Source: Candidatus Omnitrophota bacterium (lineage in GTDB: Bacteria > Omnitrophota > Gorgyraeia > Tantalellales > Tantalellaceae). From it: DNA of 45,236 nt. A program made the translations under genes and the position numbers. Shown here one piece after another: positions 1 to 22,133 of this stretch. Below the pieces are notes generated by a model. It made no database searches and was not told the DNA's origin. It saw only the letters and a program-made list of their open reading frames with translations. The stretch covers positions 1 through 45,236 of the forward strand of contig JBDRBI010000087.1 of NCBI GenBank assembly GCA_043822885.1, given 5' to 3'. Position 1 is the first letter of the stretch. Each line of letters starts with the position of its first letter.

Positions 1-680
1 TAGAATTATACGAAAAATCGCTGTGTCTTGCACCTATTATCTCAAAGTTAAAATTTTCAATGTTAAAACTTTCACCTTTGCTATTAATTCCGGTAAATTC
101 GACTGGTCCTAAAAATGGCACCGGAGCATCTTTCATATTCAACAAAGATAAAGCTGCGCCTATTGGTCCCATTTCGACTACTTTCATAAAATCAGTGATA
201 TCAAAAGCTGGTTCAGTTCCATACACATTTATTACCCTGCTTACGTTCTCATTCTGTATGACCTGTTCTCCGATGAAAGGACCTTCATAAACTATTAAAG
301 TGTCTACACCTATATCAAGATTCTGATCAAGAGCCTCTATTGATGGTCTAAAGTGCCCCGAGTGCATAAAATATGACACTTCCCCTTCCTGTTGTTCCGG
401 AGTTAAGGAATGCCAAAAATCATTTAACTTTGCTGACATTTCATTCGTTATACTATCATAATCATCTTTTACAGCATCCAGCGTCCAGCTAATACAATTG
501 TTATAGAGTCCAAGAAAATTATCCGTATCTTCATAAGAACTTATTCCAAAAGCACTTGTAGAATTTATAACTTCATCAGCTATTAAATCGCTAATAAATA
601 AGTTCATAATTGTGGGTAATTTTCCTTCGCTGTTATCATTTCCAAATCCTCCGCCGAATAGCATGATGGAGGTTATCGCC
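1..680 (-). other. Possible alpha/beta-hydrolase (lipase-like) C-terminal domain, truncated by the window edge
   Basis: The order of elements resembles an alpha/beta hydrolase: strand plus glycine loop SIMLFGGGFGND, a nucleophile-elbow-like VSYFMHSGHF, LIVYEGPFIGE, and a late His in IIGARHSDF. The elbow is not a canonical G-x-S-x-G. Confidence 0.25.
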
Positions 681-3600
681 TGTTCTAGCTGTTCTTGATC
701 CAATGTCGTAAAAACCTGTGCGGCTTCACTCGCCATATCCGCATTTTCTATAACGAAATTGATGTCTCCACTACTGCTTACTGACCATACTACACCATCT
801 TCTTCTATCTCTATCGTATTTCCTGTAAAGGTGTAATCTTCTAATATCCAATCTATAAAAGAATATTGTTGTCCATATATATGATCTATTATGTCCACAT
901 TTTGATAACCTGCATCCGGGGTATAATAAAAATACCCTCCATCCCGTGGGATAACGTTATAATAAATTTCTTCAGTCACGCTATCTTTGATCTCAGAATA
1001 CGTTAGGCGTCCATCTTCTATCAACATGTAGATCTCTAAAGATCCGTATTTTTCTGTGAAATACCCGTTTAGTAAGCCCATATTTCCCTGTGTATCCACA
1101 GCCAGATCTCCATATACTAATTTATCAGGGTCTTTGATACCAACAACATTTCCCTCAGCATCAAACAATACTATCGTTTCACTGCCTTCGACTTCAACCC
1201 CTTCAACTGTTTCACCATTATCCAAGGTAACACTATTAGTTTCGCCCTTACTATATTTCTCATTAAGATACTTTCCGATGCTCCCCTCGATCTTCACCAT
1301 TGAATTAACCGCGGTTGAGTTGAAGAAGCTTGTTGCGTATGTGTTTAGGGCTGTTTCGAGGCCTTGTTCTTGGATAATATCAGAGAAATTCATAATATTA
1401 GCCTCATATGCCGCTTGACCCCAATAATCGTCCGGTTTTATGTTCGCTCCGAGGAAGGTCAAAGCGTTATCTTTATATATCTCAAACATCTTCTCAAATA
1501 ATCCCGTTTCCCTTGTCTGAAAATCTGTACTAAGACTTGCTTCTATTGCTCCTGCTATAGCGCTAAATCCTATATTCGCCAACAATGGGTCTAGGTCAAG
1601 TTCATCCACCGCGTAATTAAAGGCAACACTGGTTACTCCTTGTGAAATACCCATCATCGCGCCGTCAAACCAAGTCGTGTTAACATTATTATCAAAAGTC
1701 GCGTTTAATGAACTCCTTATCCCAATCCCCACTAGGTAGGAGAGTTGGGGGGAGATGCCTAGGACTTGGGCCATTTCTTGGACTCCTATGTAGGCGGTCT
1801 CGGAGGCTATGTTTATGGTGATGTCTCTAAATAGGTCTTCTCCTTTATGCGTCTTGCCGTCTATTTCCATCAGGCCGCCTACTAACGCGCCTGCGGATAT
1901 GGCGGCTAGCTGTGTGATCCTGGGGTCGAGATCCGCGGCTTTGCCTATTTCTTGAACGCCGGCTATAGTGCCGGAACGAAGCATACTTGTTACTGCATCT
2001 ATATCCGGGTCAAGGGAACCTATTGTTAATCCTGTCAGAAGTGATGAAGCGATATTTGAAAGGGACGGGTCGAGGCCTATACTTGTGAAAATACTGTTGG
2101 TTCCTATATCTACCGCGGTACTTATCGCGTATGTTGTCACTGCCTGCCCCAGTTCGGCTCCTAAGATATTCGAGAAGACATTACCGATACCCGTAGAGAT
2201 GTTGCTTACAACCTCTCCTATTGATCCAAATATTGGGATAGCGTTGGTAAAAGCGCCTTTTATCGAGGCGAATATTCCGTCACCGATATTACTGAATATA
2301 CTGCCGCATGTTTCGGATATGACCGGCATTAAACTTGTCGCTAGAAATCCTCCCACGGCAAAGGCCATATCCAATAAAGAACCCGTGCGGGCAACAAAGG
2401 ATACTGTTTGTATTACCGCATTGAGGCCGAGTAGCGCTAAACCTATCGGCTGGCCTCCGGGTATAAATAAAAGTATAGTAGCTATGGGCGCGATGATTTT
2501 TTGGAAAAAGCTTACTATACCTTTCCAGAATTTTTCCCACCATCCGGCGCCTCGTATGTTCTTTTCCTGGGACGCGTTCAGGTATTTATAATTAGTATCG
2601 CTTTCGTTGACTATTCTGCTTTCTGAAAGGACATGACCTTTCCATTCTTCCATGAATTCCACACGGGATATGGTTATGTCCTGCCCGTCCCTCCCTACTG
2701 AAAGGTCTTTGTACGTTACCGTGCCATCTTCCTCGTTTATTTCTTTGAGGACGACATAATGTTTGCCGTTTATGTGTAGGATCACGTCTTTACCCGAAGC
2801 GTATTGAGCTTTTAATTCATCGAAATCTATCTTTTCGCTGTAAAGGGTAAGGCCGTTCTTTTCAGCGGTCCGCTTCATCGCGTACATCGAAATAACGAGA
2901 TCGCCTTCGGTGTTTTTATTTATGATACCCGTTAATATATCTATCTTTACGCAGGCTGAGCCTATTTCATCGAATGTCTTTGTTGTCTCTTTGTTCTTAA
3001 ATAGTTCTATGATGGTCTTAAAAGCGCTGTCCCCGAAATGAAGGCTCTGCCCGCTCAGCCAGGTAAGTATGCTGTTTATGTTTTCTTGATCAAGGCCGGA
3101 TGTTTTTACGTCGCCCGAGGTAAGGCCAAGCGAAGACAGCATTGTTTCTTTTTGGAAGTCATCCGACGCGAGATATTCATCAAAGAATGAGGTTACTTCC
3201 GCTATGATATTCTCTTTCCACATCTCTCTTTCGGCAAACTCATCAAGGCCTTTTATATACGCTATTATTTCATCCGGATCTATTGTCACGTGATCCTGTT
3301 TTGCTTTCTCAAGCCAATATTTAAGTTCCTCTTCCCCGGGATCACGGCCCAGAACGGATCTGTAGTAAGCATATGTTACGGGAGAGCTTTCTTTCTGAAC
3401 GATGTCACCCAAAATTACGTTATAATCGTTCTCTACGAGATCCAGCATCGCTTGTTCGGCGTCGCCGGCGATCTTTATCCTGGCTTCGGCCACTTGTTTT
3501 TCCAGATCCTCGTAAGCTTCTTTTTCTTGCGCATACAGATCGATCTCGTATTCATCAAGTTCTCTCAATACCCTGTCGAATTCCGACAGATCGTATACGC

Positions 3601-6600
3601 CGGGATCATACCGGTTCTTCTCTTTCTGCAGTCTTTGCCGTTCGGAATCTATCTGTGCCTGTATATCACGCACTTTTAACGCGATATTCTCTCCTGCCTC
3701 AAGTTCCGATCGTTCCAATTCCGCCAAGGCGGTGTCTTCATTGACCGCTATTTCATGGATCGCTCCTTGATAAGCTTCCTCGAGTTTTTCCCTGGCTTCG
3801 GTAAATTCGGTCTTAAGGAGGTTTTTGTTCTCATCGTATGTGTACTCCACTAAAAGCGTGCCGGTTTTGTCTTTTACGTGCGTTACGTACGCGCCGTCAA
3901 AATATGTCACGGAATGGTCCGCGGCGACGGTCTGTACCGGCATATCGCTGGCTTTATCGTATACCGTTATGATTTTTTGCGATCCGCTTAAAAGGTGAGA
4001 CGGAATTTCTTCAACGAGTTCGGCGAAGATATTTGTGTCCAGGGTAAGAGCGCTTAGATCAATAAGATCATCGTTGTTGTCGATATTCACGCCCAGAGCG
4101 TCATAAGTTACCGTATTTTTTCCCGTGGTCACTTTTATTAGGTCTACATTACCGATATCCTGACGGTCTTTTGGTTTACTTGCATAGGTAATGGTTATAT
4201 TATCCGCGGTATTTGTTATCAGCGTTGGGCTTACTGTGGGATCATTCGTCGAAAGTACCGCTTTATATTGTATGAACTTACCTTTGGCAGAAGTTATTTT
4301 TGAACCCGCGGGATCCGTTAACGGCCCGGACCACACGCTCCATGCGGAGTCCGGTTCCGGAGTATCTCCCGTACGGGTATAAAAGACTATATCCGTACCT
4401 TCCGGCAGGTTCTCACTCCATGCGAGGGTGCCGTACGCGCTAGCATTAGTCTCGATCGCCTCTGATACCAGTTCGCCTTCGATCTTTCTTTCGATCTTAC
4501 CGGTATAGAGTGTAGGGATATCGGGTAGATCGCCTTCAAGATAGACATAATCTATACGCACCCTGCCGTACCCTCCGTTACCGCCGTTCCCTCCCGGGGA
4601 TGCCCCTATTCCCCGCGCCCCTCCTTCGGCTGTAATATTCCCTTTCTCAGAGATCTCTATTTCCGCGCCCCTAAGCCATATCGTTCCCCCGGATCCTCCG
4701 CCACCGCCGCCGGACCCGTCACCATGCGCATTTTCTCCGGGTTCGCCGCTAGCGGAGATCTTACCGTTTATTATTATTTCAGGCGCCGAGATGTATATGA
4801 CGCCGCCGCCATTTCCTCCGTTCCCTCCGCTGGTATGCATCAGAGAATGGTCCCCTCCCGCGCCTCCGCCCGAACCCATATACATCTCGTCTAGTTCATC
4901 TTGACCATAAGTATAACCCGCATAGCCCTGCAAATTGTATCCTCTGTATTTTTCCGGCGACCCGTTTGTCCCTTTTGTGCCGTAACTACCTCCGCCGCCT
5001 CCGCCTCCGCTGGGCGCGTCAGGCTGATGGTTCTGCCCGTCATACGCTCCGCCTCCGCCGCCGAAATTTGGTGAAGAAGTTTCTCCCCCTATACCCGTAT
5101 ATGATTCTCCCGATCCGTTCGCTCCGTAATTTCGGCTGTTCGAGGGGTTATTTGCGCCTCCTCTGAATCCCTTACCCGCGGCTTCGATAATACCGTCTAT
5201 TTTTACTTGTCCCGTGCAGTTAAGGATCATTTCTCCGCCCGTTGCGCCGTCCCATCCGTATACGGATAGAACACCTCCTTCAGCTACGTATATACTTGAA
5301 TATTGTTTAACACCGTCTATAAAAATCGTTTCCCCGGAAGATACTATTAGGTCACCGTCGGAACCAGTCCCGTAATCAAACGGTGTCTCTAAAAACGCGC
5401 ATGTATCTTTTTTTATCAGCGTTTCGTCTTGAACTAAAAGGCCGTTCAAAGAAACTTCACTATAAGCTTCCTCAATAATATATTCGTACGTATTTATTCT
5501 GCCGTCATCTTGCGTGATAGATCTTACGAAGCCTAATTCGTCATATTCAAAACCGGTACCGCCGGATGTAAGTATTTTTTCTATGGCGCCGTTCCTTAAA
5601 GTGTATGTTTCCCCGGCGGAAGTATGATCGAATATTTCTACGCCGTCTTCATTTAAAATAATATTGTCGATAAAACCGCCCTCGGCGAATTGTATTTTCG
5701 CAATCTCTCCCTGCACGTAAGTCGTGACCGTGCCTTCCATATCTTCTATCTCTTTAAGTTCGGAGATCACGACATTATCCCTTAGATATACCAGGCGCTG
5801 CGTTTCATTAAGTATGCACCCGGCTATGTCGGATATTATTTTATTAAGTCTTGTGTAATTAAATACAAACGGTAACGCGTCTACGTTATTATCATAGACG
5901 GATATATCGCCGCCGGAGGAGGCTGTTATTGAGAAGATATTATCGATATCCGATGTATCCTGAGGCGTTCTTTTATAGGTTACATTTATGCCGTTTGTGC
6001 CGCCGAAAAATATCTTCGGCGAAATAAGTTTATTTGTCGTTGAGAGCACCGCTTTGTATTGGATATATTTATTTCCGGATGAAGTTATAGCCGAACCGGC
6101 AGGGTCCGTTAATGGACCGGACCACGCGCTCCATGCCTGGTCCGGCTCCGGGGTATCACCCGTACGTGTATAAAAGACTATATCTGTTCCTTCAGAGAGT
6201 TCTTCAGACCAGTAAAGCGCCTCATATGTATCGGCATCGGTTTCTATTATATCGGATATTAGTTCCCCTTGAAGGGTTACGTCTTTTTCGGCCGCGTATA
6301 ATGTGGGGATATCGGGAAGATCGCCCTCAAATTCAACATAATCTATACGCACTCTTCCGTATCCGCCTTCACCGCCGTCTCCTCCGGTCGATGAGCCGTT
6401 TCCTTGGGCTCCTCCTTTGACCATTATCGCGTTTGTACCGGTGATATTTATTTCTTTTCCCCTAAGCCATACTGTTCCGCCGGATCCACCTCCACCGCCT
6501 CCGGCTCCGTCGCCGCCGTTTGTTCCATTCCCGCCGTTGGCGGAGATCGTGCCGTTTATTATAATTTCAGGAGCCGCAATATATATCGCGCCTCCCCCCG

Positions 6601-9600
6601 CGCCGCCATTACCGCCGCTATTACGCATCAGGGAATGGTCCCCTCCCGCGCCGCCTCCCGAACCCAGATATAACTTGTCCGGCTCTTTTGCTCCGTAAGT
6701 ATCTCCGCTATATCCCTGCAAACCGCGTCCTCTGTAACGTTCGGGAGAGCCGTTCGCGCCTTCGGTTCCGTAACTTCCGCCGCCTCCTCCTCCGCCGCCG
6801 GGCGCGTCGGGCTGATAACTCTGCCCGTCACTTGCTCCGCCGCCTCCTCCGTAATTAGGCGTTGGTCCTTCGGATCCTAACCCCGTGTATGATTCGCCTG
6901 CCGGATTTGCTCCGTAATTCCGGCCGGTCGAAGGATTATTTACTCCTCCTCCATACCCCTTACCCGCGGCTTCTATAATGCCGTCTATCCTTACAAGCCC
7001 CGTGCAATTCAGTATTATCTCTCCGCCCTTTGTTCCATCCCATCCGTTCACGGATAAGATCCCTCCTTCAGCTACGTATATGCTTGAATACTCTTTAGCG
7101 CCGTCTATAAGAACTGTCTCTCCGGAAGATACTATTAGATCACCGTCGGAACCGGTGCCGTAATCGAACGGTTCTTCCAGAAAAACGGATGAGTCCTTTA
7201 TATCCACTCCATTAAAAGAAAAAGCGCCGGCAAGGTCTTTTCCAGAGATAAAATGCTCGTCTTCTATTACATATTCATATGTTTCGATAACACCTTGCGG
7301 GGATATAACGCTTTCCACAAAACCCGCGGCATCATATTTGGTCAGAGTGCCGTCTGAAGCGATCGTCTCTTTTATTTTCCCGGGTCCGACGATATAAGCC
7401 GTTCCTTCATGAACATATTTGAGATCTTGCGGAGTATTATCATCACTAAAAGTGATCTCTTTAACAATTATCCCGTCAGGCCGGGTAATTTCTATGATAT
7501 TACCCGCATTGTCATATTTCACTTCCGAGAGATCCGGCATAAGGATCTCCATAAAACCGGTGCCTTCGTTAACGTAAGTATATGTATATTTTCTTTTCTT
7601 TGGATCTATCAGATATATAAGTTTTTTGTTCTTGTCATATGCCTGCACATTCCCGTCTTCATCATGGACCAAGGTAAGGTCCGCTTCATAACTATAAGTG
7701 TAGAGATACAGCACGTCTTCATCCGCGTACATCTTGGTTTCCGAGAGCCTGCCTTCAGCGTCATAATCGTAGCCTATCGTTATTTCAGCGCCTGTAAGTT
7801 CCCGCACCTTTTTCAGCCTGCCCTCAAGGTACCAGCGATATTCATTTTTATTATGGTCGTTTATTTTTACCATCCCGTCTTCATAAAACCAATCGTATAC
7901 GGATCCGTCGTTTAAGGTCATCTGTTCTATTTTTCCGTCTGAGTATTCGACAATATCCCCTTTATTATTGATCGTCCGCAGAATTTCTCCGTCATTGTAG
8001 AGGGTCATACTTCCGTCCGGAGCTGATATGACCGCGTTCGAGATATCCCCCGACTCGGAGAAAGTTATTTCTCTTATTTTCGTGCCGTCGGATCTTTCTA
8101 TTTCCTTCAGACCGCCGTTCTCATATATAATGCTGGTCTCATCATCCAAATGAAGAGATTCCAGTTCGCCCATATTATTGTATATTCTTGTTATACCGGA
8201 ACGGGCGACTTCCACTTTTTGGAGGTTTCCGGTTTCATTGAACAGATAATCGTATTCCGTAGAGTTTGACCCGCCATATACGCTTCTTATAAGATCGTTC
8301 TCATAGATCGCGTTTTCACCCTTGGAGTTCAACACTTTTGTTATTCTTTTGTTTTCGCCGTAATAGACCTTAAAAGGTATGTTTTCATCTACCTCAAGAC
8401 CCTCTTGGCTAACAAGTTCGGATATGGTCATATCTTGGTCTTTTTTAAGTTCGTATCTGTACTCTTCTCCGTCGGCGCTGATAAACCGTTTTAAATATCC
8501 GTTCTCGAATTCTGTAATACTCTTGTCCGCTTTAATGAATTTTATCGGTGTTCCATATTGATCGTATGTGCAGACCGTTTCTCCGTTCGTTATCCTGATA
8601 AATAAAATATTTCCGAATAGATCCCGTATATATTCAAAGACCGTGATACCTGAAGCTCTATGATATTCCGATACTAAAGATCCCTCTCTGAACCTCTTTA
8701 CGGTCCCGTCCGCGAGTATTATCTGTAACATTTTCCCGTTATATATAACGCCTAACGCGCCGTCAGGATATTTCATTACAGCGTTCTTTATCCCGCCGGA
8801 CCCATCCGGCTCTATATCGCTCAATACGATATCGGTCCCGGCCAGTGTGATCCCGGAGATGGCGCCGTCCTGATAATATATTTTGTCTCCCCGGCTGTTG
8901 GTAACCGATATTCCTGAAGTGTCATATTTTATACCGTGCCCTATCAGAGCCGGATCGTATGAATACAGTAAAACGCCGTCAGCGGACGTGATCTCTATAC
9001 ATCCATCCGTCAGATATTTATAAATTTCGATCATGTTCTCATTATCATCATACAGATATTCCGCATAGACTTCATCCGGGGTTATATGCCATAAAAGGAG
9101 ACCTTTATCGTCATATTCTATCCAGTTCCCGTAAGGATCGCGTACGGATCTCTTCTCACCGTTATTATGATATGTATAGGTCGTGCCCTGAAGATGATCG
9201 GTCTTGTTTAAAAGAATGCCGCCCGCGTCATATTCATATGTTGCTTCCGGAACATTACCAGCGCTGTATTCCTTTATGTGCCGCGCTTGGGAAGTTCCCG
9301 CATAGTAATTCTCAAATATTTTATATTTTCCTCCGGGGTCGGTTTCTTTTAAAAGGGTTCCTTCTTCGGTATCACTGTATTCATAGACCGTGCCATCGGA
9401 TAACGTTTTCAGATGAAGTCTTCCGCTATCAGAATATGTATAAGACGCGCCTTCAAACCATGTATCAACAACATCTTGCTCAAAGGATAGATGGTTCTCA
9501 AAATCATCGTAATGATAATATTTGTTTATTTCCGACCCCGTATTCGGAACATAGTTCTTTATAAGCTTATCTTGCGGACCGTATTTGTATATTTCTCCGT

Positions 9601-12600
9601 TGGCGTATACCCGGATCTTGCCTGTGTATTCACCGTTTTCGGTATATGTATAAGATGTGAAAAGGCCGTTACTATCCAAGCTCGTATTTAGAATATAGCT
9701 TTCTCCCAGATATTGATATGAACGTAAGCTTCCATCCGGTTTCTCGTGTATATAGATATTATCCGGAGTTATTTTCACTGTTCCTATTTTTTCAAGTGTA
9801 TCTTTTATATTATTTTTTATGTCTGAGACTTCAATGGATTCGGACGGGCCGGGGATATTTAACACAATAGGTATGGTCTTTGCTTTTTCTAAGACCGTAT
9901 ACGTACCAGTCAGATCCGATGATATATCGGAGCTTATATCCGAATATTTTAAAAGATCCGGGTCGTCCGAGTTTTTAGGTAAAAGATCCGCATTATCCGA
10001 TGAGATAACAAAATCTTGCGTTCTCATTTCGGCGGGAATATCGTTGTCTAATAAAAGGCCCGCCTTGGTATTATACTCGTATACTTCAAGGTTATCATAT
10101 ACTTCGGTCTTTATATTACCGCCGTATATGTTCGCGTAGACCCTGGGTGCCCAGTTCGCGTCCTCCAGTACATATATAGGTTCGCCCGGGGATAAACCTT
10201 TCTCATAACAATATATTCTAATCTCATTATTCTCCAACACGCATTCTATTATATAGCTTTTACCCGGCGCCAATTCTATATCCAGCGGCTTCTTTTCACT
10301 TGTGTTCTTACCCGTCGTGTAATCATAGGTGTCATACACCATCTCCATCTTTCCGCCATAATACCTGGTGTACAGGGATTCGTATTTAGTGTTAGAAGTA
10401 TTACCTATCGTGTAATAGAGATTTTTCGCGGTGTTATTGTTATCAAAATTGAATTCTGTCCTGTAAATAGGGTCTTTTTTTAAGGGACACGCGTAATCTG
10501 TGGATATTGACTGTATATCCCTGAAACTTGTGATCGCGGGTTCCGACAATGCAACGTTCGCGTTAGAACCGCTCACTGAAAATTTCGGGTCCCATTCAGC
10601 GTCATGTATAACATAAATAGGCTCATCCGGACGGGCATCCACCGTTTTATATAGATATATCTCGACATCTTGATCTTTCCATATGTATTCTAATTTATAT
10701 TCTTTTCCTTTATCGATGGTGATATCGAGGTACCGGCTATCATATTCGCTTTCTCCCGTAGATTGATCATAGTTGTAATAAGCTAAATAAGGATTTTTAT
10801 CGGATATGCTCAGTGATACGCCGACATTTTTATCGCCGCCGTTATAATACTCCGCGCCGGCGTAAAAACTGGCATATGTTTTATCCGGATCCAGGAGGAA
10901 TGTCGTTTCCAGAGATGGATTTGACGCGGGCTCTATAAATGTAGTCCCGTAAAAACCCTGATAAAGATTGGTCGCGTCATATAAGCGCCGTTTATATATT
11001 CTAAGATTGTCCTCATCCGTTATTTCATACGCGTAATGCGCGATATCGCCGTCCGGAAAAACCGCTTTTTCTATTCTTTCTTCGAAAAGTCCGCTCTCAT
11101 AAAAAGAAAGTACCGTCCCTTCGGGAAAATTCGGATATATGGAATCTACATTTCCTTCTTCGCCGTATTCGTATAAAGTGATCTCTCCGCCCAGCCTCTC
11201 TTCTTTTATAAGCCGGTCATCAGAGTTATATACCTTTATAGTCCCTTCAGGCAGAGTTATTATTTTATATAAAAGTCCTCCGGAAGGGTCGTGCTCATAT
11301 ATGATAGTTTCGTCACCGTCATTTCTGCCGCATTTAAGCACATCTCCGGTTACTTTACCATATTCATAATATTCCAAATTATCCCAGGCATTCACAATTA
11401 CATCCCCGCCGGATACGCCGGTGTAAATTTGGGGCTGCATATGTATATTCTCGAACGCATATATAGGAGAGGTTCTTTCTTTACCTTTTTCGTAGAGATA
11501 TACGGTTACGGTATCATCTTCATTTATCATCTCCATAACATATGGAGTATCCTCCTCTATATTCATCTCAAACGGTATGTCTCGAATTTCGGCCTTGCCG
11601 TCATTATCATAAGAATATAATTCCACGGAACTGGTGCCGTTATCGTAGCTGAAGCTCAGAGCATACGATATTTCCTTCGTTCCCCCGGTTAATCTGGAAT
11701 AAAACACTTTATTTTGAGCCACGCTATCTAAATAAAATTCCGCTTCATATATGGCGGACCCATGCAATGTGTCCTGAAAGCTTCCGCAAACACTTTTATT
11801 TGCCATATATGTCCCGGAAGATGCCTCATCGACCTTAACTTCGGCATTATTCCCCGAAGAAAAGAATTTGGGGTCCCATTCATTATCTTCTATCACAAAG
11901 GTCGCTACGTCAGGCCTTTCTAAAGAAGCCTCATATATGTATATCCCCACATTTTCATCCGTCCATATATATTCTGTGACATAATCCGCGCCGCTCTTTA
12001 TTGCTATATCTATCTTCTCGCTTTTCTGATCGTAAACATCCGTGACATAATTATAGTTGCAATATTTGATCGTCGAGAGATCGTCATTGAGAGATATAGA
12101 TATATCTATATATTTTTCACCTCTTTTGTAATAAGACGCTCCATTTGCGGCAAACGCTTCTTTATCATCATTAGCGTCAAGATTATATATTGTTTTAAGA
12201 TAAGGGGTCTCTTCTCTGTCTATATTTTCTGATCCGTAATATCTCTGATAAACCCTATAACCATCGTATATCTCTCTTTTAATCACCTTTAAAGCGCCTT
12301 CTTGTGTAAGATCATAATCATACCGGTCATAAGTCCCCTCAAGGTTCGAGTAACTTCTCAATCTTCCTTTGGCGTCCAATTCTTTTATCGTACCGTCTAG
12401 TTGAGTAAGCACGGTCTTAATATGTTCCCGATCTTCGGCATAGATATAATCATATACATTATCGCCTCTATAGCATTTAATAAGATCCCAATATTCGTTA
12501 TATATATATTTTCTGTCGGCGGTTTCTATGATCACCTTCCCGCCGGCGGTATCCTTGGAATATTTGATCCTTTCTGCGGCAGAGCCGGGCCGTATGATGA

Positions 12601-13420
12601 TCGCGTTAAGAAGTGCTCCTTCTTCATCCAAACTGAATTCTTCTAAGACGCTTCCGTCCGCAAAAACGATCGAAATAACCTTCCCTTCCTTAATATGATA
12701 TTCAGTCCCGTCCCCTCTTTCTATTCTTAAGACATTTCCGTTCTCATACTCTATGGTCCGGCCGTTGAAATACTCAACTCTTTGCAGATCATCATTCGAC
12801 CCGTAATATAAAAATTTATCGGCCTCTTTTACTTTTATCTGTACGATCTCATTGTTATCGTTTTTTTCATATGCATATACCCTGCTTTTTCCGTCCGTAT
12901 ATTCAATATGTTCGACAAGGCCTTCGTCGTTATAAGTAAATTTTGTGCCGTCTTCATCTAATATCGAAATAAGTTTTCCTTCTAGTATTGATATTTCCTT
13001 TTTATCAGCATACGTAATGTCCGCATCCAACAAACCGCCTTCCGGATCCAAGATGATGTTTTTAATGATAGTGCCGTCAGATCTTTTTATATTTTTAAGG
13101 CTCCCGTTATCATAACTTACGATGTCACCAATTTCCGTGGTAATACAAAACTCCGTATTCTGAGGAGAGTAAGGATCTTGCTCTGAATTAAGGATGTTAA
13201 AATCTTCTATCGTTTGCTTCTGAGACATTAATGCTTCTAAAATTGTGGAAGAAGATTGAGTTTCTGATATTACTAAACCGGATATGTTTTCTATTTGTTT
13301 TGAACTTATGACTTCCAAAAGATCATCCGCGCACCAAGCGACCTGATTAAATAAAAAGATCCCGGCAACAATTACCGAGATCGATTTGAGGAATAAATTA
13401 TATTCTGATTTTTTCTTCAT
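1..13420 (-). CDS. Giant secreted multidomain surface/toxin-like protein; 3' end runs off the window (at least 4473 codons)
   Basis: I translated the reverse frame by hand (codon low coordinate = 2 mod 3). It is open from ATG 13418-13420 down to base 2, and I found no in-frame stop. An in-frame upstream stop lies at 13520-13522. The N-terminus is MKKKSEYNLFLKSISVIVAGIFLFNQVAWCADD. The sequence looks protein-like throughout. It is absent from the ORF track, presumably because no stop lies inside the window (the partial tuf is omitted in the same way). Confidence 0.85.
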   Translation of the reverse strand, partial: MKKKSEYNLFLKSISVIVAGIFLFNQVAWCADDLLEVISSKQIENISGLVISETQSSSTILEALMSQKQTIEDFNILNSEQDPYSPQNTEFCITTEIGDIVSYDNGSLKNIKRSDGTIIKNIILDPEGGLLDADITYADKKEISILEGKLISILDEDGTKFTYNDEGLVEHIEYTDGKSRVYAYEKNDNNEIVQIKVKEADKFLYYGSNDDLQRVEYFNGRTIEYENGNVLRIERGDGTEYHIKEGKVISIVFADGSVLEEFSLDEEGALLNAIIIRPGSAAERIKYSKDTAGGKVIIETADRKYIYNEYWDLIKCYRGDNVYDYIYAEDREHIKTVLTQLDGTIKELDAKGRLRSYSNLEGTYDRYDYDLTQEGALKVIKREIYDGYRVYQRYYGSENIDREETPYLKTIYNLDANDDKEAFAANGASYYKRGEKYIDISISLNDDLSTIKYCNYNYVTDVYDQKSEKIDIAIKSGADYVTEYIWTDENVGIYIYEASLERPDVATFVIEDNEWDPKFFSSGNNAEVKVDEASSGTYMANKSVCGSFQDTLHGSAIYEAEFYLDSVAQNKVFYSRLTGGTKEISYALSFSYDNGTSSVELYSYDNDGKAEIRDIPFEMNIEEDTPYVMEMINEDDTVTVYLYEKGKERTSPIYAFENIHMQPQIYTGVSGGDVIVNAWDNLEYYEYGKVTGDVLKCGRNDGDETIIYEHDPSGGLLYKIITLPEGTIKVYNSDDRLIKEERLGGEITLYEYGEEGNVDSIYPNFPEGTVLSFYESGLFEERIEKAVFPDGDIAHYAYEITDEDNLRIYKRRLYDATNLYQGFYGTTFIEPASNPSLETTFLLDPDKTYASFYAGAEYYNGGDKNVGVSLSISDKNPYLAYYNYDQSTGESEYDSRYLDITIDKGKEYKLEYIWKDQDVEIYLYKTVDARPDEPIYVIHDAEWDPKFSVSGSNANVALSEPAITSFRDIQSISTDYACPLKKDPIYRTEFNFDNNNTAKNLYYTIGNTSNTKYESLYTRYYGGKMEMVYDTYDYTTGKNTSEKKPLDIELAPGKSYIIECVLENNEIRIYCYEKGLSPGEPIYVLEDANWAPRVYANIYGGNIKTEVYDNLEVYEYNTKAGLLLDNDIPAEMRTQDFVISSDNADLLPKNSDDPDLLKYSDISSDISSDLTGTYTVLEKAKTIPIVLNIPGPSESIEVSDIKNNIKDTLEKIGTVKITPDNIYIHEKPDGSLRSYQYLGESYILNTSLDSNGLFTSYTYTENGEYTGKIRVYANGEIYKYGPQDKLIKNYVPNTGSEINKYYHYDDFENHLSFEQDVVDTWFEGASYTYSDSGRLHLKTLSDGTVYEYSDTEEGTLLKETDPGGKYKIFENYYAGTSQARHIKEYSAGNVPEATYEYDAGGILLNKTDHLQGTTYTYHNNGEKRSVRDPYGNWIEYDDKGLLLWHITPDEVYAEYLYDDNENMIEIYKYLTDGCIEITSADGVLLYSYDPALIGHGIKYDTSGISVTNSRGDKIYYQDGAISGITLAGTDIVLSDIEPDGSGGIKNAVMKYPDGALGVIYNGKMLQIILADGTVKRFREGSLVSEYHRASGITVFEYIRDLFGNILFIRITNGETVCTYDQYGTPIKFIKADKSITEFENGYLKRFISADGEEYRYELKKDQDMTISELVSQEGLEVDENIPFKVYYGENKRITKVLNSKGENAIYENDLIRSVYGGSNSTEYDYLFNETGNLQKVEVARSGITRIYNNMGELESLHLDDETSIIYENGGLKEIERSDGTKIREITFSESGDISNAVISAPDGSMTLYNDGEILRTINNKGDIVEYSDGKIEQMTLNDGSVYDWFYEDGMVKINDHNKNEYRWYLEGRLKKVRELTGAEITIGYDYDAEGRLSETKMYADEDVLYLYTYSYEADLTLVHDEDGNVQAYDKNKKLIYLIDPKKRKYTYTYVNEGTGFMEILMPDLSEVKYDNAGNIIEITRPDGIIVKEITFSDDNTPQDLKYVHEGTAYIVGPGKIKETIASDGTLTKYDAAGFVESVISPQGVIETYEYVIEDEHFISGKDLAGAFSFNGVDIKDSSVFLEEPFDYGTGSDGDLIVSSGETVLIDGAKEYSSIYVAEGGILSVNGWDGTKGGEIILNCTGLVRIDGIIEAAGKGYGGGVNNPSTGRNYGANPAGESYTGLGSEGPTPNYGGGGGASDGQSYQPDAPGGGGGGGGSYGTEGANGSPERYRGRGLQGYSGDTYGAKEPDKLYLGSGGGAGGDHSLMRNSGGNGGAGGGAIYIAAPEIIINGTISANGGNGTNGGDGAGGGGGGSGGTVWLRGKEINITGTNAIMVKGGAQGNGSSTGGDGGEGGYGRVRIDYVEFEGDLPDIPTLYAAEKDVTLQGELISDIIETDADTYEALYWSEELSEGTDIVFYTRTGDTPEPDQAWSAWSGPLTDPAGSAITSSGNKYIQYKAVLSTTNKLISPKIFFGGTNGINVTYKRTPQDTSDIDNIFSITASSGGDISVYDNNVDALPFVFNYTRLNKIISDIAGCILNETQRLVYLRDNVVISELKEIEDMEGTVTTYVQGEIAKIQFAEGGFIDNIILNEDGVEIFDHTSAGETYTLRNGAIEKILTSGGTGFEYDELGFVRSITQDDGRINTYEYIIEEAYSEVSLNGLLVQDETLIKKDTCAFLETPFDYGTGSDGDLIVSSGETIFIDGVKQYSSIYVAEGGVLSVYGWDGATGGEMILNCTGQVKIDGIIEAAGKGFRGGANNPSNSRNYGANGSGESYTGIGGETSSPNFGGGGGAYDGQNHQPDAPSGGGGGGGSYGTKGTNGSPEKYRGYNLQGYAGYTYGQDELDEMYMGSGGGAGGDHSLMHTSGGNGGNGGGVIYISAPEIIINGKISASGEPGENAHGDGSGGGGGGSGGTIWLRGAEIEISEKGNITAEGGARGIGASPGGNGGNGGYGRVRIDYVYLEGDLPDIPTLYTGKIERKIEGELVSEAIETNASAYGTLAWSENLPEGTDIVFYTRTGDTPEPDSAWSVWSGPLTDPAGSKITSAKGKFIQYKAVLSTNDPTVSPTLITNTADNITITYASKPKDRQDIGNVDLIKVTTGKNTVTYDALGVNIDNNDDLIDLSALTLDTNIFAELVEEIPSHLLSGSQKIITVYDKASDMPVQTVAADHSVTYFDGAYVTHVKDKTGTLLVEYTYDENKNLLKTEFTEAREKLEEAYQGAIHEIAVNEDTALAELERSELEAGENIALKVRDIQAQIDSERQRLQKEKNRYDPGVYDLSEFDRVLRELDEYEIDLYAQEKEAYEDLEKQVAEARIKIAGDAEQAMLDLVENDYNVILGDIVQKESSPVTYAYYRSVLGRDPGEEELKYWLEKAKQDHVTIDPDEIIAYIKGLDEFAEREMWKENIIAEVTSFFDEYLASDDFQKETMLSSLGLTSGDVKTSGLDQENINSILTWLSGQSLHFGDSAFKTIIELFKNKETTKTFDEIGSACVKIDILTGIINKNTEGDLVISMYAMKRTAEKNGLTLYSEKIDFDELKAQYASGKDVILHINGKHYVVLKEINEEDGTVTYKDLSVGRDGQDITISRVEFMEEWKGHVLSESRIVNESDTNYKYLNASQEKNIRGAGWWEKFWKGIVSFFQKIIAPIATILLFIPGGQPIGLALLGLNAVIQTVSFVARTGSLLDMAFAVGGFLATSLMPVISETCGSIFSNIGDGIFASIKGAFTNAIPIFGSIGEVVSNISTGIGNVFSNILGAELGQAVTTYAISTAVDIGTNSIFTSIGLDPSLSNIASSLLTGLTIGSLDPDIDAVTSMLRSGTIAGVQEIGKAADLDPRITQLAAISAGALVGGLMEIDGKTHKGEDLFRDITINIASETAYIGVQEMAQVLGISPQLSYLVGIGIRSSLNATFDNNVNTTWFDGAMMGISQGVTSVAFNYAVDELDLDPLLANIGFSAIAGAIEASLSTDFQTRETGLFEKMFEIYKDNALTFLGANIKPDDYWGQAAYEANIMNFSDIIQEQGLETALNTYATSFFNSTAVNSMVKIEGSIGKYLNEKYSKGETNSVTLDNGETVEGVEVEGSETIVLFDAEGNVVGIKDPDKLVYGDLAVDTQGNMGLLNGYFTEKYGSLEIYMLIEDGRLTYSEIKDSVTEEIYYNVIPRDGGYFYYTPDAGYQNVDIIDHIYGQQYSFIDWILEDYTFTGNTIEIEEDGVVWSVSSSGDINFVIENADMASEAAQVFTTLDQEQLEQAITSIMLFGGGFGNDNSEGKLPTIMNLFISDLIADEVINSTSAFGISSYEDTDNFLGLYNNCISWTLDAVKDDYDSITNEMSAKLNDFWHSLTPEQQEGEVSYFMHSGHFRPSIEALDQNLDIGVDTLIVYEGPFIGEQVIQNENVSRVINVYGTEPAFDITDFMKVVEMGPIGAALSLLNMKDAPVPFLGPVEFTGINSKGESFNIENFNFEIIGARHSDFSYNS
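1530..2555 (-). other. Hydrophobic Gly/Ser/Ile-rich region of about 340 aa with predicted TM helices and LDP-initiated helical repeats
   Basis: GAGWWEKFWKGIVSFFQKIIAPIATILLFIPGGQPIGLALLGLNAVIQTVSFV...LLDMAFAVGGFLATSLMPVI...GSIFSNIGDGIFASIKGAFTNAIPIFGSIGEVVSNISTGIGNVFSNILG. Repeats then follow, each starting LDP or ISP: GLDPSLSNIASSLLTGLTIGS / LDPDIDAVTSMLRSGTIAGV / LDPRITQLAAISAGALVGGL / ISPQLSYLVGIGI / LDPLLANIGFSAIAGAIEA. Confidence 0.55.
2620..3080 (-). other. Peptidase C39-like (papain-fold) domain, apparently lacking the catalytic Cys
   Basis: LSGQSLHFGDSAFKTIIELF...ISMYAMKRTAEKNGLTLYSEKIDFDELKAQYASGKDVILHINGKHYVVLKEINEEDGTVTYKDLSVG...ISRVEFMEEWKGHVL follows the C39 layout: Q, then nucleophile helix, ..., H-[FY]-V-V-L, ..., D, ..., W-x-G. 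The position normally occupied by D-C-G reads G-D-S-A here. Confidence 0.45.
3222..3392 (-). other. DUF4214-like motif in the giant protein
   Basis: YAYYRSVLGRDPGEEELKYWLEKAKQ...EIIAYIKGLDEFAERE resembles the DUF4214 signature (lYr-x-iLgRepD-x-x-G-x-x-yW ... S-x-EF). Recognised by eye only. Confidence 0.45.
3430..3805 (-). other. Coiled-coil-like segment of the giant protein
   Basis: A charged region of about 120 aa with heptad-like character: EAREKLEEAYQGAIHEIAVNEDTALAELERSELEAGENIALKVRDIQAQIDSERQRLQKEKN...YAQEKEAYEDLEKQVAEARIKIAGDAEQAMLDLVEN. Confidence 0.5.
4190..5390 (-). repeat. Intragenic tandem duplication, unit B core: glycine-rich region (about 4500-5390) plus beta-sandwich-like domain (about 4190-4499)
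   Basis: Collinear with unit A: PFDYGTGSDGDLIVSSGETIFIDG...GGGGGGGSYG...GSGGGAGGDHS...GGNGGNGGGVIYISAPEIIINGKISASG...GGGGGGSGGTIWLRG...GGNGGNGGYGRVRIDY...GTDIVFYTRTGDTPEPDSAWSVWSGPLTDPAGSKITSAKGKFIQYKAVLST. The plus-strand track ORFs 4191-4382 and 5988-6173 end in near-identical peptides, which independently shows the DNA repeat. Confidence 0.8.
5985..7180 (-). repeat. Intragenic tandem duplication, unit A core: glycine-rich solenoid-like region (about 6290-7180) plus beta-sandwich-like domain (about 5985-6289)
   Basis: Protein: PFDYGTGSDGDLIVSSGETVLIDG...IIEAAGKGYGGG...GGGGGGGGSYG...LGSGGGAGGDHS...GGNGGAGGGAIYIAAPEIIINGTISANGGNG...GGGGGGSGGTVWLRG...GGDGGEGGYGRVRIDY. This is followed by ...GTDIVFYTRTGDTPEPDQAWSAWSGPLTDPAGSAITSSGNKYIQYKAVLST. 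The offset to unit B is about 1788-1791 bp. Confidence 0.8.
7290..10072 (-). repeat. Degenerate YD/RHS-like beta-hairpin repeat region of the giant protein (similar blocks at 12256-13240, 10969-11357, 5391-5984, 3806-4189)
   Basis: Recurrent approx 20-aa units with a Y-x-Y-D-x-x-G-x-L signature, e.g. TYEYDAGGILLNKTD, RDPYGNWIEYDDKGLLL, IGYDYDAEGRLSETKMY, VEYTYDENKNLLKTEF. I saw no canonical Rhs core PxxxxDPxGL motif. Confidence 0.5.
10073..10968 (-). repeat. Bipartite beta-rich module, copy 2
   Basis: See copy 1. Each copy has two sub-domains, each ending in a (I/V)Y(L/I/C)YE-like strand followed by P-x-Y-x-x-E/D-x-x-W. Confidence 0.7.
11358..12255 (-). repeat. Bipartite beta-rich module, copy 1 (about 300 aa) in the giant protein
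   Basis: Aligns along its length with copy 2. Examples: YQRYYGS/YQGFYGT; GASYYKRGEKYIDISISL/GAEYYNGGDKNVGVSLSI; EYIWTDENVGIYIYEASLERPDVATFVIEDNEWDPKFFSSG/EYIWKDQDVEIYLYKTVDARPDEPIYVIHDAEWDPKFSVSG; and the ends DNLEYYEY/DNLEVYEY. Confidence 0.7.
13328..13420 (-). other. Predicted N-terminal signal peptide of the giant protein
   Basis: MKKK charged n-region, hydrophobic ISVIVAGIFLF core, then small residues VAWCA before DD. There is no clear lipobox. Confidence 0.6.
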
Positions 13421-13475
13421 CTTACGCCTCGCTTTTTTTAAAGCAACTAGAAGAAACCCTTTTTTACAATGTCTT

Positions 13476-13504
13476 AAAATAACATAATTTTCCTTTTTTG
13501 TCAA
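13476..13504 (-). promoter_or_regulatory. Sigma70-like promoter with extended -10 for the giant gene
   Basis: The minus strand reads TTGACA (13499-13504), a 17 nt spacer ending in TGT, then TATTTT (13476-13481). This sits about 55 nt upstream of the ATG. A weak GAGG lies 7-8 nt before the start. Confidence 0.5.
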
Positions 13505-13626
13505 TATTTTTTTATCTTTTCACAAAAAGCCAGTTGCTTACACTCTCCCCCCTGAGACACCAGGCTTAACCTGGTTAGATTCTGCCAGGTTAGAATTGTA
13601 TTCGTTTTTATCTTTTGGTAGTTTAA

Positions 13627-14121
13627 CTAGTGGGTGGAGATTAGGAGTTCTTTGCCGGCTAGGCTTAGAGTTAGGACTATACCTCCGGCTAATAGTACGC
13701 CTATCAGGATCGCGCAGAAGGCGTACCGGAAACGCATTTTAAATAGGGTTGCGGCTACGCAGCCGGTCCAGGCACCGGTTATGGGTAGAGGCACGGCAAC
13801 GAAGAGTATAAGGCCCAGAAATTCGAATTTTTCTACCAAAGCGGCCTTCCTTTTTGTTCTTTCAAAAAGCCAATTGAAGAATTTCTCAAAAATGGGGATA
13901 TGTCTTAATTTCTCGGAAACGGGTTGTAAAAAAAATAAGATCGGGATCACGGGTATCAAGTTCCCCGCTACCGCCAAAAGATATGACTTTAAGGGGCCGA
14001 ATCCCATGGCGACGGCTAAAGGTATCGCTCCTCTCAGTTCCGAAACGGGAAGCGCGGAAAGAATAACTACCGCCGCTTCCTTGTTAAGAGAGACCAGACT
14101 ATCGGTTATTGTTTCCAGCAT
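13627..14121 (-). CDS. Small multi-pass membrane protein, COG2426 / small multidrug export-like family
   Basis: 164 aa with 4-5 hydrophobic helices. Motifs SELRGAIPLA and PLPITGAWTG are typical of the putative small multidrug export family. It starts 1 nt after the stop of the upstream GT2 gene. Confidence 0.55.
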   Translation of the reverse strand: MLETITDSLVSLNKEAAVVILSALPVSELRGAIPLAVAMGFGPLKSYLLAVAGNLIPVIPILFFLQPVSEKLRHIPIFEKFFNWLFERTKRKAALVEKFEFLGLILFVAVPLPITGAWTGCVAATLFKMRFRYAFCAILIGVLLAGGIVLTLSLAGKELLISTH

Positions 14122-14122
14122 A

Positions 14123-14815
14123 TTACCTCTTGTTCAGATAATGTTTCAGTATCAATTTTAAGAATTTCAAAGTATCTCTGATGGGCTTGATCTTGGATAT
14201 CTCTTCTCCGTATACGGTTTGTACCGGAACGGATTTTATTATCATTTTCTTGTCGGCGGCTCTCATAAGAAGTTCCGAATCAATGTCATATTTTTTTGAT
14301 GTCAGCTCAAGTTTTTCCAGTGAACTTACTTTTATTATTCTATATCCGCACTGGGTATCAGGGATATATTGCCTGCATATCCCCGAGATAACCCATGACA
14401 TAAATCTGTTCGTCAAATACCTTGTGGGCGGCATGGGCCCGGAATCTATCATCCTGTTCCCGATAATTATGTCCGGCTCTATGTCCTCACCCCGTGTCGC
14501 TTCCATCAGGACCGGGATATCTTCAGTAAGATGCTGCCCGTCGGCATCCATCATTATCATCCATTTGAAGGTGGTCTTCTTCAATACATATTTGATACCT
14601 TCTCTTATGGAAAAACCTTTGCCGAAATTCTTGCGGTTACGCATGATCATGGCTCCCGAGTCAAGGGCTATGCGCTCGGTATTATCGGTAGAACCGTCAT
14701 CCACCACAAGAACGCTTACTCCGGTTCTTACGATATCCCTAACGATAGTTCCGATAGTACGGGCTTCATTATATGAGGGAATAACTACTATTGTATTGTC
14801 TGTTCTGGCAGCCAT
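14123..14815 (-). CDS. Family 2 glycosyltransferase, polyprenyl-phosphate sugar synthase-like (DPM1/GtrB/ArnC type)
   Basis: VVIPSYNEARTIG, VLVVDDGSTDNT, NFGKGFSIREG and MDADGQH are classic GT-A/GT2 motifs. At 230 aa it has no C-terminal TM segment. Confidence 0.8.
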   Translation of the reverse strand: MAARTDNTIVVIPSYNEARTIGTIVRDIVRTGVSVLVVDDGSTDNTERIALDSGAMIMRNRKNFGKGFSIREGIKYVLKKTTFKWMIMMDADGQHLTEDIPVLMEATRGEDIEPDIIIGNRMIDSGPMPPTRYLTNRFMSWVISGICRQYIPDTQCGYRIIKVSSLEKLELTSKKYDIDSELLMRAADKKMIIKSVPVQTVYGEEISKIKPIRDTLKFLKLILKHYLNKR

Positions 14816-15666
14816 AATCTCCTAAAAACGTACCATTGCTCAGGGTTCTCTTTTATGTATTTTTCAGCTATTCTCAAATACATACCCATGAGAGCTTCTT
14901 CATCTTTCTTATCGTCCCCCGTAGGTTCATAATATATCGGCTTCTCTAAACACATGTCATATGTATTGTCTTTCTTTCTTATCAGACAGCAAAATACTAT
15001 AGGCGCTCCCGTGCGCAGGGAAAGTGTCGCGGGCCCTCTGGGTATAATCGCTTTTTTACCGAAAAAAGTTACGGGAATACCGTTATTGGTATAATCCTTG
15101 TCCCCTACTACGCCTACGAACTCGTTATTCTTTATGGACCCGAAACATTCCCTTATTCTGGAACCTATCGGTATCGGTGTCATATGATTGGATAGCCTCT
15201 GCCGGTTAAAAAAATCGTCCACCCTTTTATCTTTATGTTCCAGGACTATAGCGCTTATAGGATATCCTAAAGTGCCCATAACGGCGCCTCCAAGCTCCCA
15301 GTTGCCGAAATGCAGCGCTACAATGACCGCGCCTTTACCTCCCGCTATACATTCATCCAGAAAATTCTGTCCCTTTAAATGGACGTTTTTATCTATATAT
15401 TCTTTTGTTATCTTTTGGAATCTAAAAAAATCGACAAGATATTTAGCGAAATTTCTGAATATTTCAAGTACGTATTTGTTCAGTATTTTTTTATCTGTTT
15501 CCGCGCCCAGAACTACCTTCAGGTTTTCTTTGAGCTCTATTTTGTCACGGGAAGCAAAGATATAAAAGAAACGCGCCGCTATCCCGGCTATCATGTAGCA
15601 GCCTTTTAACGGCAGACGTCTCGCTATGAATATTATTGTTTTGTAGACGTAATACATCATGTTCAA
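14788..15666 (-). CDS. LpxL/HtrB/PatA-family lipid acyltransferase (lysophospholipid / lipid A-type acyltransferase)
   Basis: N-terminal TM helix, the HFGNWELGG catalytic H-x4-E/D-like motif, and a C-terminal ENPEQWYVFRRLW. Its 3' end overlaps the GT2 start by 28 nt. Confidence 0.7.
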   Translation of the reverse strand: MNMMYYVYKTIIFIARRLPLKGCYMIAGIAARFFYIFASRDKIELKENLKVVLGAETDKKILNKYVLEIFRNFAKYLVDFFRFQKITKEYIDKNVHLKGQNFLDECIAGGKGAVIVALHFGNWELGGAVMGTLGYPISAIVLEHKDKRVDDFFNRQRLSNHMTPIPIGSRIRECFGSIKNNEFVGVVGDKDYTNNGIPVTFFGKKAIIPRGPATLSLRTGAPIVFCCLIRKKDNTYDMCLEKPIYYEPTGDDKKDEEALMGMYLRIAEKYIKENPEQWYVFRRLWLPEQTIQ

Positions 15667-16784: not shown

Positions 16785-16857
16785 AGGATCACTTCGTGCC
16801 GCGCTCTTCGCAATTACGGTTTATAAGGGCGCGCCCCTACACAATGATGGAGTGAGG

Positions 16858-18042: not shown

Positions 18043-18052
18043 TTTTCCTCCG

Positions 18053-18280
18053 TTATTCTATCTCAGCCAGGATGTCTCCCGCTCGAGCGTTTTCACCTTC
18101 GGTCTTTATTATTTTTCTAAGGACTCCTCCCGCGGGAGCGGCTATATCAAAAGTTGCTTTATCAGCGGAGATCTCGACAATATCTTGATCTTTTTCTATC
18201 CGCGCGTTCTTTTTTACATGCCAGCGGGTTATCACGACACTTTCTTCTCTGTTTGTAACTTCCGGCAATCTAAATTCCAT
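18053..18280 (-). CDS. Stand-alone lipoyl/biotinyl-attachment domain protein (75 aa)
   Basis: Single hybrid-barrel domain with EISADKATFDIAAPAGG, where the D-K-A lipoyl-lysine motif sits in its usual hairpin. Confidence 0.65.
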   Translation of the reverse strand: MEFRLPEVTNREESVVITRWHVKKNARIEKDQDIVEISADKATFDIAAPAGGVLRKIIKTEGENARAGDILAEIE

Positions 18281-18296
18281 TTCTCCGACCTCAGGA

Positions 18297-18944: not shown

Positions 18945-18996
18945 CCTCGCCCCCCAGCCCCCGTGCGTGTTTTCGAAGAAAACAACGGGGGTTGCC

Positions 18997-19500: not shown

Positions 19501-19580
19501 TTCTCTCTCCTTGTTTTATAGAAGTCAGAAGCCAGAAGTTAGAGGGTAGATCCAAACCCGGTAACTACTTCCTCTGTTTT

Positions 19581-20903: not shown

Positions 20904-20927
20904 CCTTACTCCTTTTCTAAACCCTAT

Positions 20928-22094: not shown

Positions 22095-22133
22095 AATACC
22101 CTCCCTCATGGATCTATTTATCAAGACTAATTA

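Follow-up and report, generated by a model that had tools for sequence, protein, structure and literature searches.

We have analyzed a stretch of 45,236 nucleotides (nt) from a Candidatus Omnitrophota bacterium (contig JBDRBI010000087.1 of assembly GCA_043822885.1; hereafter the window), which carries a giant gene with an internal tandem duplication of a glycine-rich module and a beta-sandwich-like domain. The gene lies on the minus strand, and one stop-free frame of 4,506 codons (window 2-13519) holds both copies. The start codon is amino acid (aa) 34 of this frame (MKKKSEY..., window 13418-13420), and from this methionine onward the sequence is that of database protein P0060, which has 4,473 aa and is truncated where the contig ends. 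Complete orthologues are Omnitrophota proteins of 3,980-4,557 aa. The gene and the parts of the duplication are as follows, with residues numbered along the frame.

Window 2..13420, minus strand: giant gene, host of the duplication; 4,473 aa or more, truncated where the contig ends
Window 7172..7507, minus strand: YD-like lead-in of unit 1, weakly duplicated; aa 2005-2116
Window 6326..7171, minus strand: glycine-rich module, copy 1; aa 2117-2398; match to gliding_AgmC_N at E 1e-16; predicted by AlphaFold2 with a predicted local distance difference test score (pLDDT) of 94
Window 6020..6325, minus strand: beta-sandwich-like domain, copy 1; aa 2399-2500; strands predicted by AlphaFold2
Window 5381..6019, minus strand: poorly conserved linker between the two cores; aa 2501-2713
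Window 5381-5713, minus strand: counterpart of the lead-in in unit 2; aa 2603-2713
Window 4535..5380, minus strand: glycine-rich module, copy 2; aa 2714-2995; here the best match to gliding_AgmC_N lies at aa 2737-2988
Window 4229..4534, minus strand: beta-sandwich-like domain, copy 2; aa 2996-3097

The in-frame tandem duplication was confirmed. A first-pass annotation of the DNA had described two collinear units offset by about 1788-1791 bp with one codon indel, and both the spacing of exact words and a repeat search of the window agree with it. Among the exact 12-mers in window 3500-7800, 33 recur at an offset of 1788 nt and 14 at 1791 nt, while the next best offset has 4, and the repeat search returned four collinear blocks (300, 175, 121 and 72 nt, with 76-79% identity). 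The unit is accordingly 597 aa long (1791/1788 nt) and stays in frame, and the single codon indel between the copies lies inside the glycine-rich part. PFDYGTGSDGDLIVSSGET stands at the beginning of both units, which is aa 2117 (window 7171) for the first and aa 2714 (window 5380) for the second, and the motifs quoted in the annotation are all present. On the one hand, the offset of 1.79 kb that the annotation gave as the size of the unit stands. On the other hand, conservation is not even along this length, because the well-conserved stretch comprises 1.15 kb of each unit and the remainder is 25-34% identical in protein. The conserved part consists of two cores of 384 aa (aa 2117-2500 and aa 2714-3097), which have 73% identity as proteins and 72.5-77% as DNA (72.5% when the whole core is counted), about three bases in four rather than the roughly four in five estimated before; in a blastn comparison of the copies, 1,143 nt were aligned at 73.7%. 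Within the cores, the beta-sandwich-like domain of copy 2 is 68% identical to that of copy 1, with a ratio of nonsynonymous to synonymous substitutions (dN/dS) of 0.15. Outside them, the two lead-ins have 34% aa identity with saturated synonymous sites (proportion of synonymous differences, pS, 0.89) and were aligned by BLASTP at 32% over 84 aa, and the linker at aa 2501-2713 is 25% identical to the stretch that follows copy 2.

The divergence of the cores amounts to a dS of 1.16 and a dN of 0.195. With the resulting dN/dS of 0.17, the two copies are both old and constrained, and each of them is under purifying selection. The longest exact run common to the two copies is 20 nt, so that present-day homologous recombination between them is unlikely. 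The duplication had also been called a hotspot for recombination, copy-number variation and assembly collapse. Recombination holds as a matter of history, since the orthologues described below bear the marks of concerted evolution, but collapse during assembly is unlikely for copies with about 74% identity and an exact run of this length.

Two further observations concern the composition of the cores. Both of them (window 4231-5383 and 6019-7174) have 53% G+C, compared with 43% for the gene and for the window; this is attributable to the excess of GGN codons and does not point to a foreign origin. On the plus strand, opposite the sequence that encodes the glycine-rich part, open reading frames of 89-102 aa lie at window 6112-6698; the one at 6417-6698, for example, has proline-rich stretches, among them PPDPPPPPPAPSPP. 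These are shadow reading frames that result from the complementarity of GGN and NCC codons, and they are not genes.

The same arrangement of two units was found in the orthologues P0069/P0204 (Ca. Makaraimicrobium thalassicum), P0068 and P0070/P0208/P0209, which are 45-50% identical to the window protein and have their units spaced by 609-615 aa, compared with 597 aa here. When copy number was compared among related genomes, as the first-pass annotation had proposed, two copies stood at the same place in all Omnitrophota orthologues. More distant relatives differ in layout: in P0085 the distance between the two units is 1,161 aa and there is an extra sandwich, and P0148 has one unit and a separate sandwich. 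In the P0068 orthologue (gene 3001-14943 of locus L001; GCA_042570105.1 JBHPHW010000010.1), the repeat at L001:7280-10784 extends over 1,660 nt with 3 mismatches and is spaced by 1,845 nt.

It could be argued that the repeat, or its copy number, was produced during the assembly of a contig from a metagenome, and in favor of this the gene runs off the end of a contig of a metagenome-assembled genome (MAG), and one orthologue contains a near-identical 1,660-nt repeat of a misassembly-prone kind. However, the copies in the window differ at about 26% of bases with no common exact run beyond 20 nt, their frame stays open with a dN/dS of 0.17, and two copies are found in six independently assembled orthologues. 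Such an artefact is, in our view, hardly credible.

The sequences around the copies suggest how old the arrangement is. Between genomes, the flanks that precede, separate and follow the copies can be aligned from end to end at 32-50% identity, and the linker between the cores has 32-34% identity to the orthologue linkers along its whole extent, whereas within one genome the flanks are only weakly similar to each other. Since the flanks are orthologous across genomes and only weakly alike within a genome, the two-copy layout is ancestral and older than the split of the Omnitrophota orthologues.

The copies themselves showed a different relationship. Those within one protein are 55% (P0070), 73% (the window), 87% or 100% identical, while copies from different orthologues are 55-64% identical. 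In a neighbor-joining tree, the copies group by genome in three of the four proteins, and the two 55%-identical copies of P0070 are unpaired. At the DNA level, the identity of the repeat is 73.7% in the window, 88.4% in locus L002 and 99.8% over 1,660 nt in L001, and the corresponding pS values within genomes are 0.59, 0.27 and 0.00, compared with saturated values of 0.75-0.81 between genomes. Along the window gene, pS is 0.43-0.69 in most segments of the core, reaches 0.92 at aa 2408-2447 and is 0.76-0.95 in the flanks; relative to a core level of about 0.5, it rises to 0.8-0.95 at aa ~2080-2127, and past aa ~2470 it increases more slowly. Because the copies are closer within than between genomes, at synonymous sites as well, and lie between orthologous flanks, this pattern indicates, as read from the alignments, concerted evolution by intragenic gene conversion that is roughly confined to the two-domain core.

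The same closeness of copies within a genome would also arise if the copies had been formed by separate, lineage-specific duplications in each genome, since recent independent duplications give the same pattern and need no conversion. We consider this unlikely. Exactly two copies occur at the same position with a spacing of 597-615 aa in all orthologues, and the intervening segment has orthologous counterparts in the other genomes (32-34%) but is only weakly like the outer flanks of its own genome. Furthermore, the copies of P0070/P0208/P0209 are as divergent (55%) as those of different orthologues, and the rise of pS outside the core fits a conversion tract inside an older unit. Accordingly, gene conversion acting on an ancestral pair is the reading that we retain for the core.

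With respect to the family of the glycine-rich module, the sole curated relative was NCBIfam NF047640, gliding_AgmC_N, which matched the whole protein in two stretches with 127.2 bits (E 7.6e-37) and one unit with 60.9 bits (E 1e-16), and which also matched 53 of 68 family members. The match covers positions 141-393 of the 412 positions of the model, and the first 140 positions are unmatched. The scores stay far below the equivalog cut-off of 275 bits, while the homology to the glycine-rich part of the model is significant. The relation is best described, at the level of sequence profiles, as homology to part of the domain and not as membership in the family.

The module belongs to a large family. 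When 1.84 billion representative proteins (clustered at 50%) were searched with a profile, 20,454 matched at E <=1e-3, 10,998 at <=1e-10 and 2,373 at <=1e-30. The orthologues were recovered by this exhaustive profile search; a word-index homologue search with one unit had been swamped by poly-glycine words and missed them, with 56 weak short matches among 8,000 candidates scored. Among 200 retrieved proteins, the module is present in 1-8 copies per protein, in hosts of ~350 to 7,697 aa, and the beta-sandwich follows only 17 of 258 full modules. The partner domains are all extracellular, namely the type IX secretion system (T9SS) sorting domain, SprB, the MopE motif, epidermal growth factor (EGF) domains, dockerin, immunoglobulin (Ig)-like domains and the prepilin N-methylation motif. 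Named sources of the family are Omnitrophota, Patescibacteria, Desulfopila (Desulfobacterota), Bacteroidia and an uncultured archaeon. A phmmer search of PDB sequences with one unit matched constructs with glycine-serine (GS) linkers fused to green fluorescent protein (GFP) only, and these were rejected as compositional artefacts.

The first-pass annotation had guessed, from composition and the order of motifs, that the module is a bacterial member of the glycine-rich domain family of ALK/LTK (Pfam PF12810), in which polyglycine-II helices are packed into a lattice. Several properties are in line with this idea: short strands alternate with runs of 6-8 glycines in a row, the autocorrelation of glycine peaks at lag 3 (0.20, versus 0.12 and 0.10 at lags 1 and 2), and 127 residues of the predicted structure, mostly with a pLDDT above 90, lack regular DSSP structure, which is how polyglycine-II would look but is not diagnostic of it. 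However, neither copy matched PF12810 or any other Pfam family at E <=10, and in none of 68 aligned family members was the module matched by PF12810 or another Pfam family, although a positive control, a stretch of 210 aa of human ALK verified as residues 144-353 of PDB chain 7mzw_A, was detected by PF12810 in the same library (25.0 bits versus a cut-off of 24.5). When the family profile was aligned to this ALK stretch by hhalign, the probability was 5% over 17 poly-glycine columns. ALK/LTK chains are present in the PDB copy that was searched, yet they were not matched by the family profile at E <=10, and no ALK/LTK entry was among the best 50 of 300 Foldseek matches to the PDB (E <=10). Since the Pfam, hhalign, PDB profile and Foldseek tests were all negative while the ALK control was positive, membership in PF12810 is unsupported, and we regard this assignment as very doubtful. 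The companion statement that the module is not collagen-like holds, because the sequence has poly-glycine and GGxGG runs in place of G-X-Y tracts and the Pfam Collagen family gave no match.

The structure of one unit was predicted by AlphaFold2 from an alignment of 68 sequences, with a pLDDT of 94.1 and a predicted template modelling score (pTM) of 0.88; this superseded a run with 12 sequences (pLDDT 71.5), of which the Foldseek search had been uninformative. In this model, the lead-in of the module forms short, beta-helix-like strands at unit residues 12-68. It is followed at residues 69-195 by 127 residues with 36% glycine and no regular DSSP structure (pLDDT mostly >90), and then by long strands at 196-206, 234-244 and 274-284, which are 38-40 residues apart and each preceded by a glycine run. 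Rungs A and B align with a score of 69, compared with 39.6 +/- 6.5 for shuffled sequences, of which 2 in 1,000 reach 69. The C-terminal ~100 residues are all beta strand, and for the beta-sandwich-like domain strands were listed at unit residues 292-296, 302-306, 330-339 and 370-379, with block means of pLDDT of 74-95. The glycine-rich solenoid-like module with a beta-sandwich of about 100 aa, as the annotation had described it, is thus supported as a confident prediction by this model.

Solved relatives of the family were sought in two ways. Foldseek with the 68-sequence model gave no significant match to the PDB (best E 0.15, none at 0.001 or lower), and a profile search of PDB sequences found no solved relative of the family. 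Against BFVD, on the other hand, Foldseek matched predicted proteins of giant viruses and phages at E 9e-13 to 8e-8, with query-normalised template modelling (TM) scores of 0.39-0.54 over ~290-450 columns and 20-26% identity. For the beta-sandwich domain, no Pfam family was found, the PHROGs families gave only a weak match to 'minor tail protein' (E 0.0036), and a word-index search with a 9-sequence profile returned nine short unnamed proteins. Separately, residues 61-73 of the sandwich query matched Modestobacter sp. SSW1-42 over 13 residues at 92% identity (locus L003, NZ_JBISCA010000003.1: 324036-336074), which is almost certainly due to chance.

The pattern of conservation bears on what kind of domain this is. 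Of the 50 positions at which 75% or more of 257 aligned modules agree, about 44 are occupied by glycine. The main conserved positions other than glycine are Y28, W44, 164 (leucine in 77%, proline here), R273 and 274 (isoleucine in 77%, valine here), and the only widely kept charged residues are R273 (90%) and E93 (69%). As the conserved positions are nearly all glycine, they point to a packing scaffold and not to a catalytic site, and from these alignments we infer that the glycine-rich domain is a rigid structural or binding scaffold and not an enzyme. A right-handed beta-helix enzyme, such as a polysaccharide lyase or hydrolase that attacks the cell walls of prey, was considered as well, given that the short strands of the lead-in resemble a beta-helix, that giant proteins of Omnitrophota have been proposed to degrade cell surfaces and that the phage tailspike 6e1r appeared among the weak Foldseek matches (E 0.5). 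That match is not significant, no beta-helix, pectate-lyase, glycosidase or Chlamydia PMP repeat family of Pfam matched the protein, its units or the 68 members, and the near-restriction of conservation to glycine again speaks against an active site. We find an enzyme of this type highly improbable, and a scaffold remains the reading that we prefer.

The setting of the duplication within the host protein was then considered. The remaining features of this protein are as follows.

Window 13328..13396, minus strand: hydrophobic N-terminal segment, signal peptide or anchor; aa 42-64; peak of 1.83 in a 19-residue Kyte-Doolittle window; sequence MKKKSEYNLFLKSISVIVAGIFLFNQVAWCADD
Window 2624..2893, minus strand: Peptidase C39-like domain; aa 3543-3632; Pfam PF03412, 27 bits versus a cut-off of 22, E 3.9e-6
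Window 2318..2518, minus strand: about three hydrophobic segments resembling membrane spans; aa 3668-3734; Kyte-Doolittle peaks of 1.67-2.12

The N-terminal segment is followed by about 2,000 aa that are rich in tyrosine, aspartate and glutamate and contain RHS/YD repeats. Matches above the cut-offs to RHS_repeat PF05593 of Pfam (48.2 bits versus 22) and to the YD repeat TIGR01643 (23.3 bits versus 15.8, at aa 1999-2019) identify the host as an RHS/YD-repeat protein. The Pfam and NCBIfam scans listed no C-terminal RHS toxin domain in this protein, of which the C-terminus is cut by the contig end. The Peptidase_C39 match spans positions 45-127 of the 133 positions of the profile only, and the N-terminal part of the domain is unmatched. 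The catalytic cysteine of C39 peptidases sits in this N-terminal part, and the C39-like domain of the giant protein may be inactive. Beyond aa 3734, there is a region rich in glycine, alanine, serine and isoleucine, and then the C-terminal part, which exceeds 770 aa, matches no family and extends to window 2.

The protein contains a second, much older internal duplication as well. Its halves, aa 316-728 and aa 737-1157 (window 10049-12574), are offset by ~429 aa and 30-33% identical, for example over 300 aa at E 9e-47, and have in common the motif EYIW.D..V.IY.Y........P......D.EWDPKF..SG.NA.V. Upstream of the giant gene, window 13627-30090 contains further minus-strand genes, of which the identities were judged by eye from the translations. 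They include glycosyltransferase-like, acyltransferase-like, several aminotransferase, aconitase/LeuCD-like and endonuclease III-like products, as well as MutL-like, MutS-like, RplQ-like and RpoA-like products, and look like ordinary chromosomal genes and not like those of a phage or plasmid. Scans of the window for Rfam families and tRNAs were empty.

Taking these results together, we consider it probable that the locus is explained by an ancient in-frame duplication in an exported, membrane-anchored giant protein, by a module from a large uncurated family, by conversion between the copies and by a role at the cell surface. In this explanation, a unit of 597 aa was duplicated in tandem inside the giant protein in ancient times. 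The unit consists of a short YD-repeat-like lead-in, a glycine-rich domain of ~282 aa and a beta-sandwich of ~100 aa, and the glycine-rich domain in turn begins with strands, continues with a long stretch rich in glycine and ends in three rungs of ~40 residues, each with a glycine run and strands. Conversion has then homogenized the copies again, to different degrees in different lineages. The likely task of the module is adhesion or spacing on the surface of the cell when it attaches to host or prey cells, and an adhesion or scaffolding role of the giant protein as a whole is likely. The data show the duplication, the selection acting on it, the conversion, a family relationship in the sense of homology and a confident prediction of the fold. 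We infer its export, surface exposure and scaffold or adhesion role from its architecture and from the partner domains of the family.

Several points weigh against parts of this explanation. The 99.8% repeat of L001 could be an artefact of assembling the MAG and not the product of a recent conversion, and repeated independent duplication at the same site, unlikely as we judge it, is the alternative that remains for the likeness of the copies. The match counts at the weak end of a profile with 30% glycine are possibly inflated by composition. Also, the three-dimensional class, a beta-solenoid with or without polyglycine-II, was taken from the DSSP and pLDDT summary of a single AlphaFold2 model, the signal peptide and the membrane topology were judged solely from hydrophobicity, and the proposed adhesion role was drawn from context only.

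A wider proposal may be offered, which we regard as tentative and would not ourselves expect to hold in full. The AgmC-N-like module might have a fold of its own, to which no solved structure is related and in which beta-solenoid rungs are combined with tightly packed glycine segments. Its family might then count among the largest extracellular families of bacteria, archaea and large DNA viruses that are still uncurated, and be used as a general module for adhesion or as a rigid spacer. The pair in Omnitrophota would then be kept homogenized because both copies engage the same ligand on host or prey.

For a large surface protein, a duplication of this kind is nothing unusual. Its value is that it flags a very widespread glycine-rich family, with more than 20,000 representatives and with neither a Pfam model nor an experimental structure, which spreads over Omnitrophota, Patescibacteria, Desulfobacterota, Bacteroidia, an archaeon and giant viruses. 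A tempting link to the glycine-rich domain of ALK/LTK could be corrected as unsupported. In addition, the series of copies that are 55%, 73%, 87% and 100% identical is a natural series of gene conversion, usable for studying how repeats are kept up in the giant proteins of uncultured bacteria that are possibly predatory or host-dependent.

Compared with known systems, the module resembles the glycine-rich domain of ALK/LTK (PDB 7LS0, 7N00, 7NX0) in its extracellular location and in the long poly-glycine runs between strands, but differs from it in that no relationship was detected by hidden Markov model (HMM), profile or Foldseek comparison. A similar case is that of the polyglycine-II sandwich domains of phage gp38 adhesins and mycobacterial PE_PGRS proteins, with which it shares GGxGGx motifs of period 3 and a surface or adhesion setting (see, for example, PMC10216338 and PMC12032242); no PDB sequence or fold match to gp38 was obtained, and the resemblance is one of motif only. 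The structural matches in BFVD come from viruses of Ostreococcus and Bathycoccus (prasinoviruses), Orpheovirus, 'collagen-like' proteins of Pandoravirus and tailed phages. All of these are predictions for proteins without known function, and 'collagen-like' is the label of the depositors. Closer is the N-terminal domain of the adventurous-gliding protein AgmC of Myxococcus, which is likewise glycine-rich and found in a cell-envelope or motility setting, whereas the present module is internal, duplicated and located in Omnitrophota; our literature search for AgmC found no paper on its structure or mechanism in the library searched.

The whole protein resembles, at a smaller size, the giant proteins of Omnitrophota in which C39-like domains are combined with transmembrane anchors; a part in adhesion to prey and in the processing of cell surfaces has been suggested for them (West-Roberts et al., bioRxiv 10.1101/2023.11.21.568195). 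The text of that study does not contain the word 'glycine'. The giants that its abstract deals with exceed 30,000 aa, unlike the present protein of approximately 4.5 thousand aa, and they have a divergent SecA DEAD helicase domain, whereas the Pfam scan gave no SecA match in the part of our protein that is present. What the window protein has in common with them is its origin in Omnitrophota, its RHS-like regions rich in beta structure, its C39-like domain and its transmembrane segments near the C-terminus.

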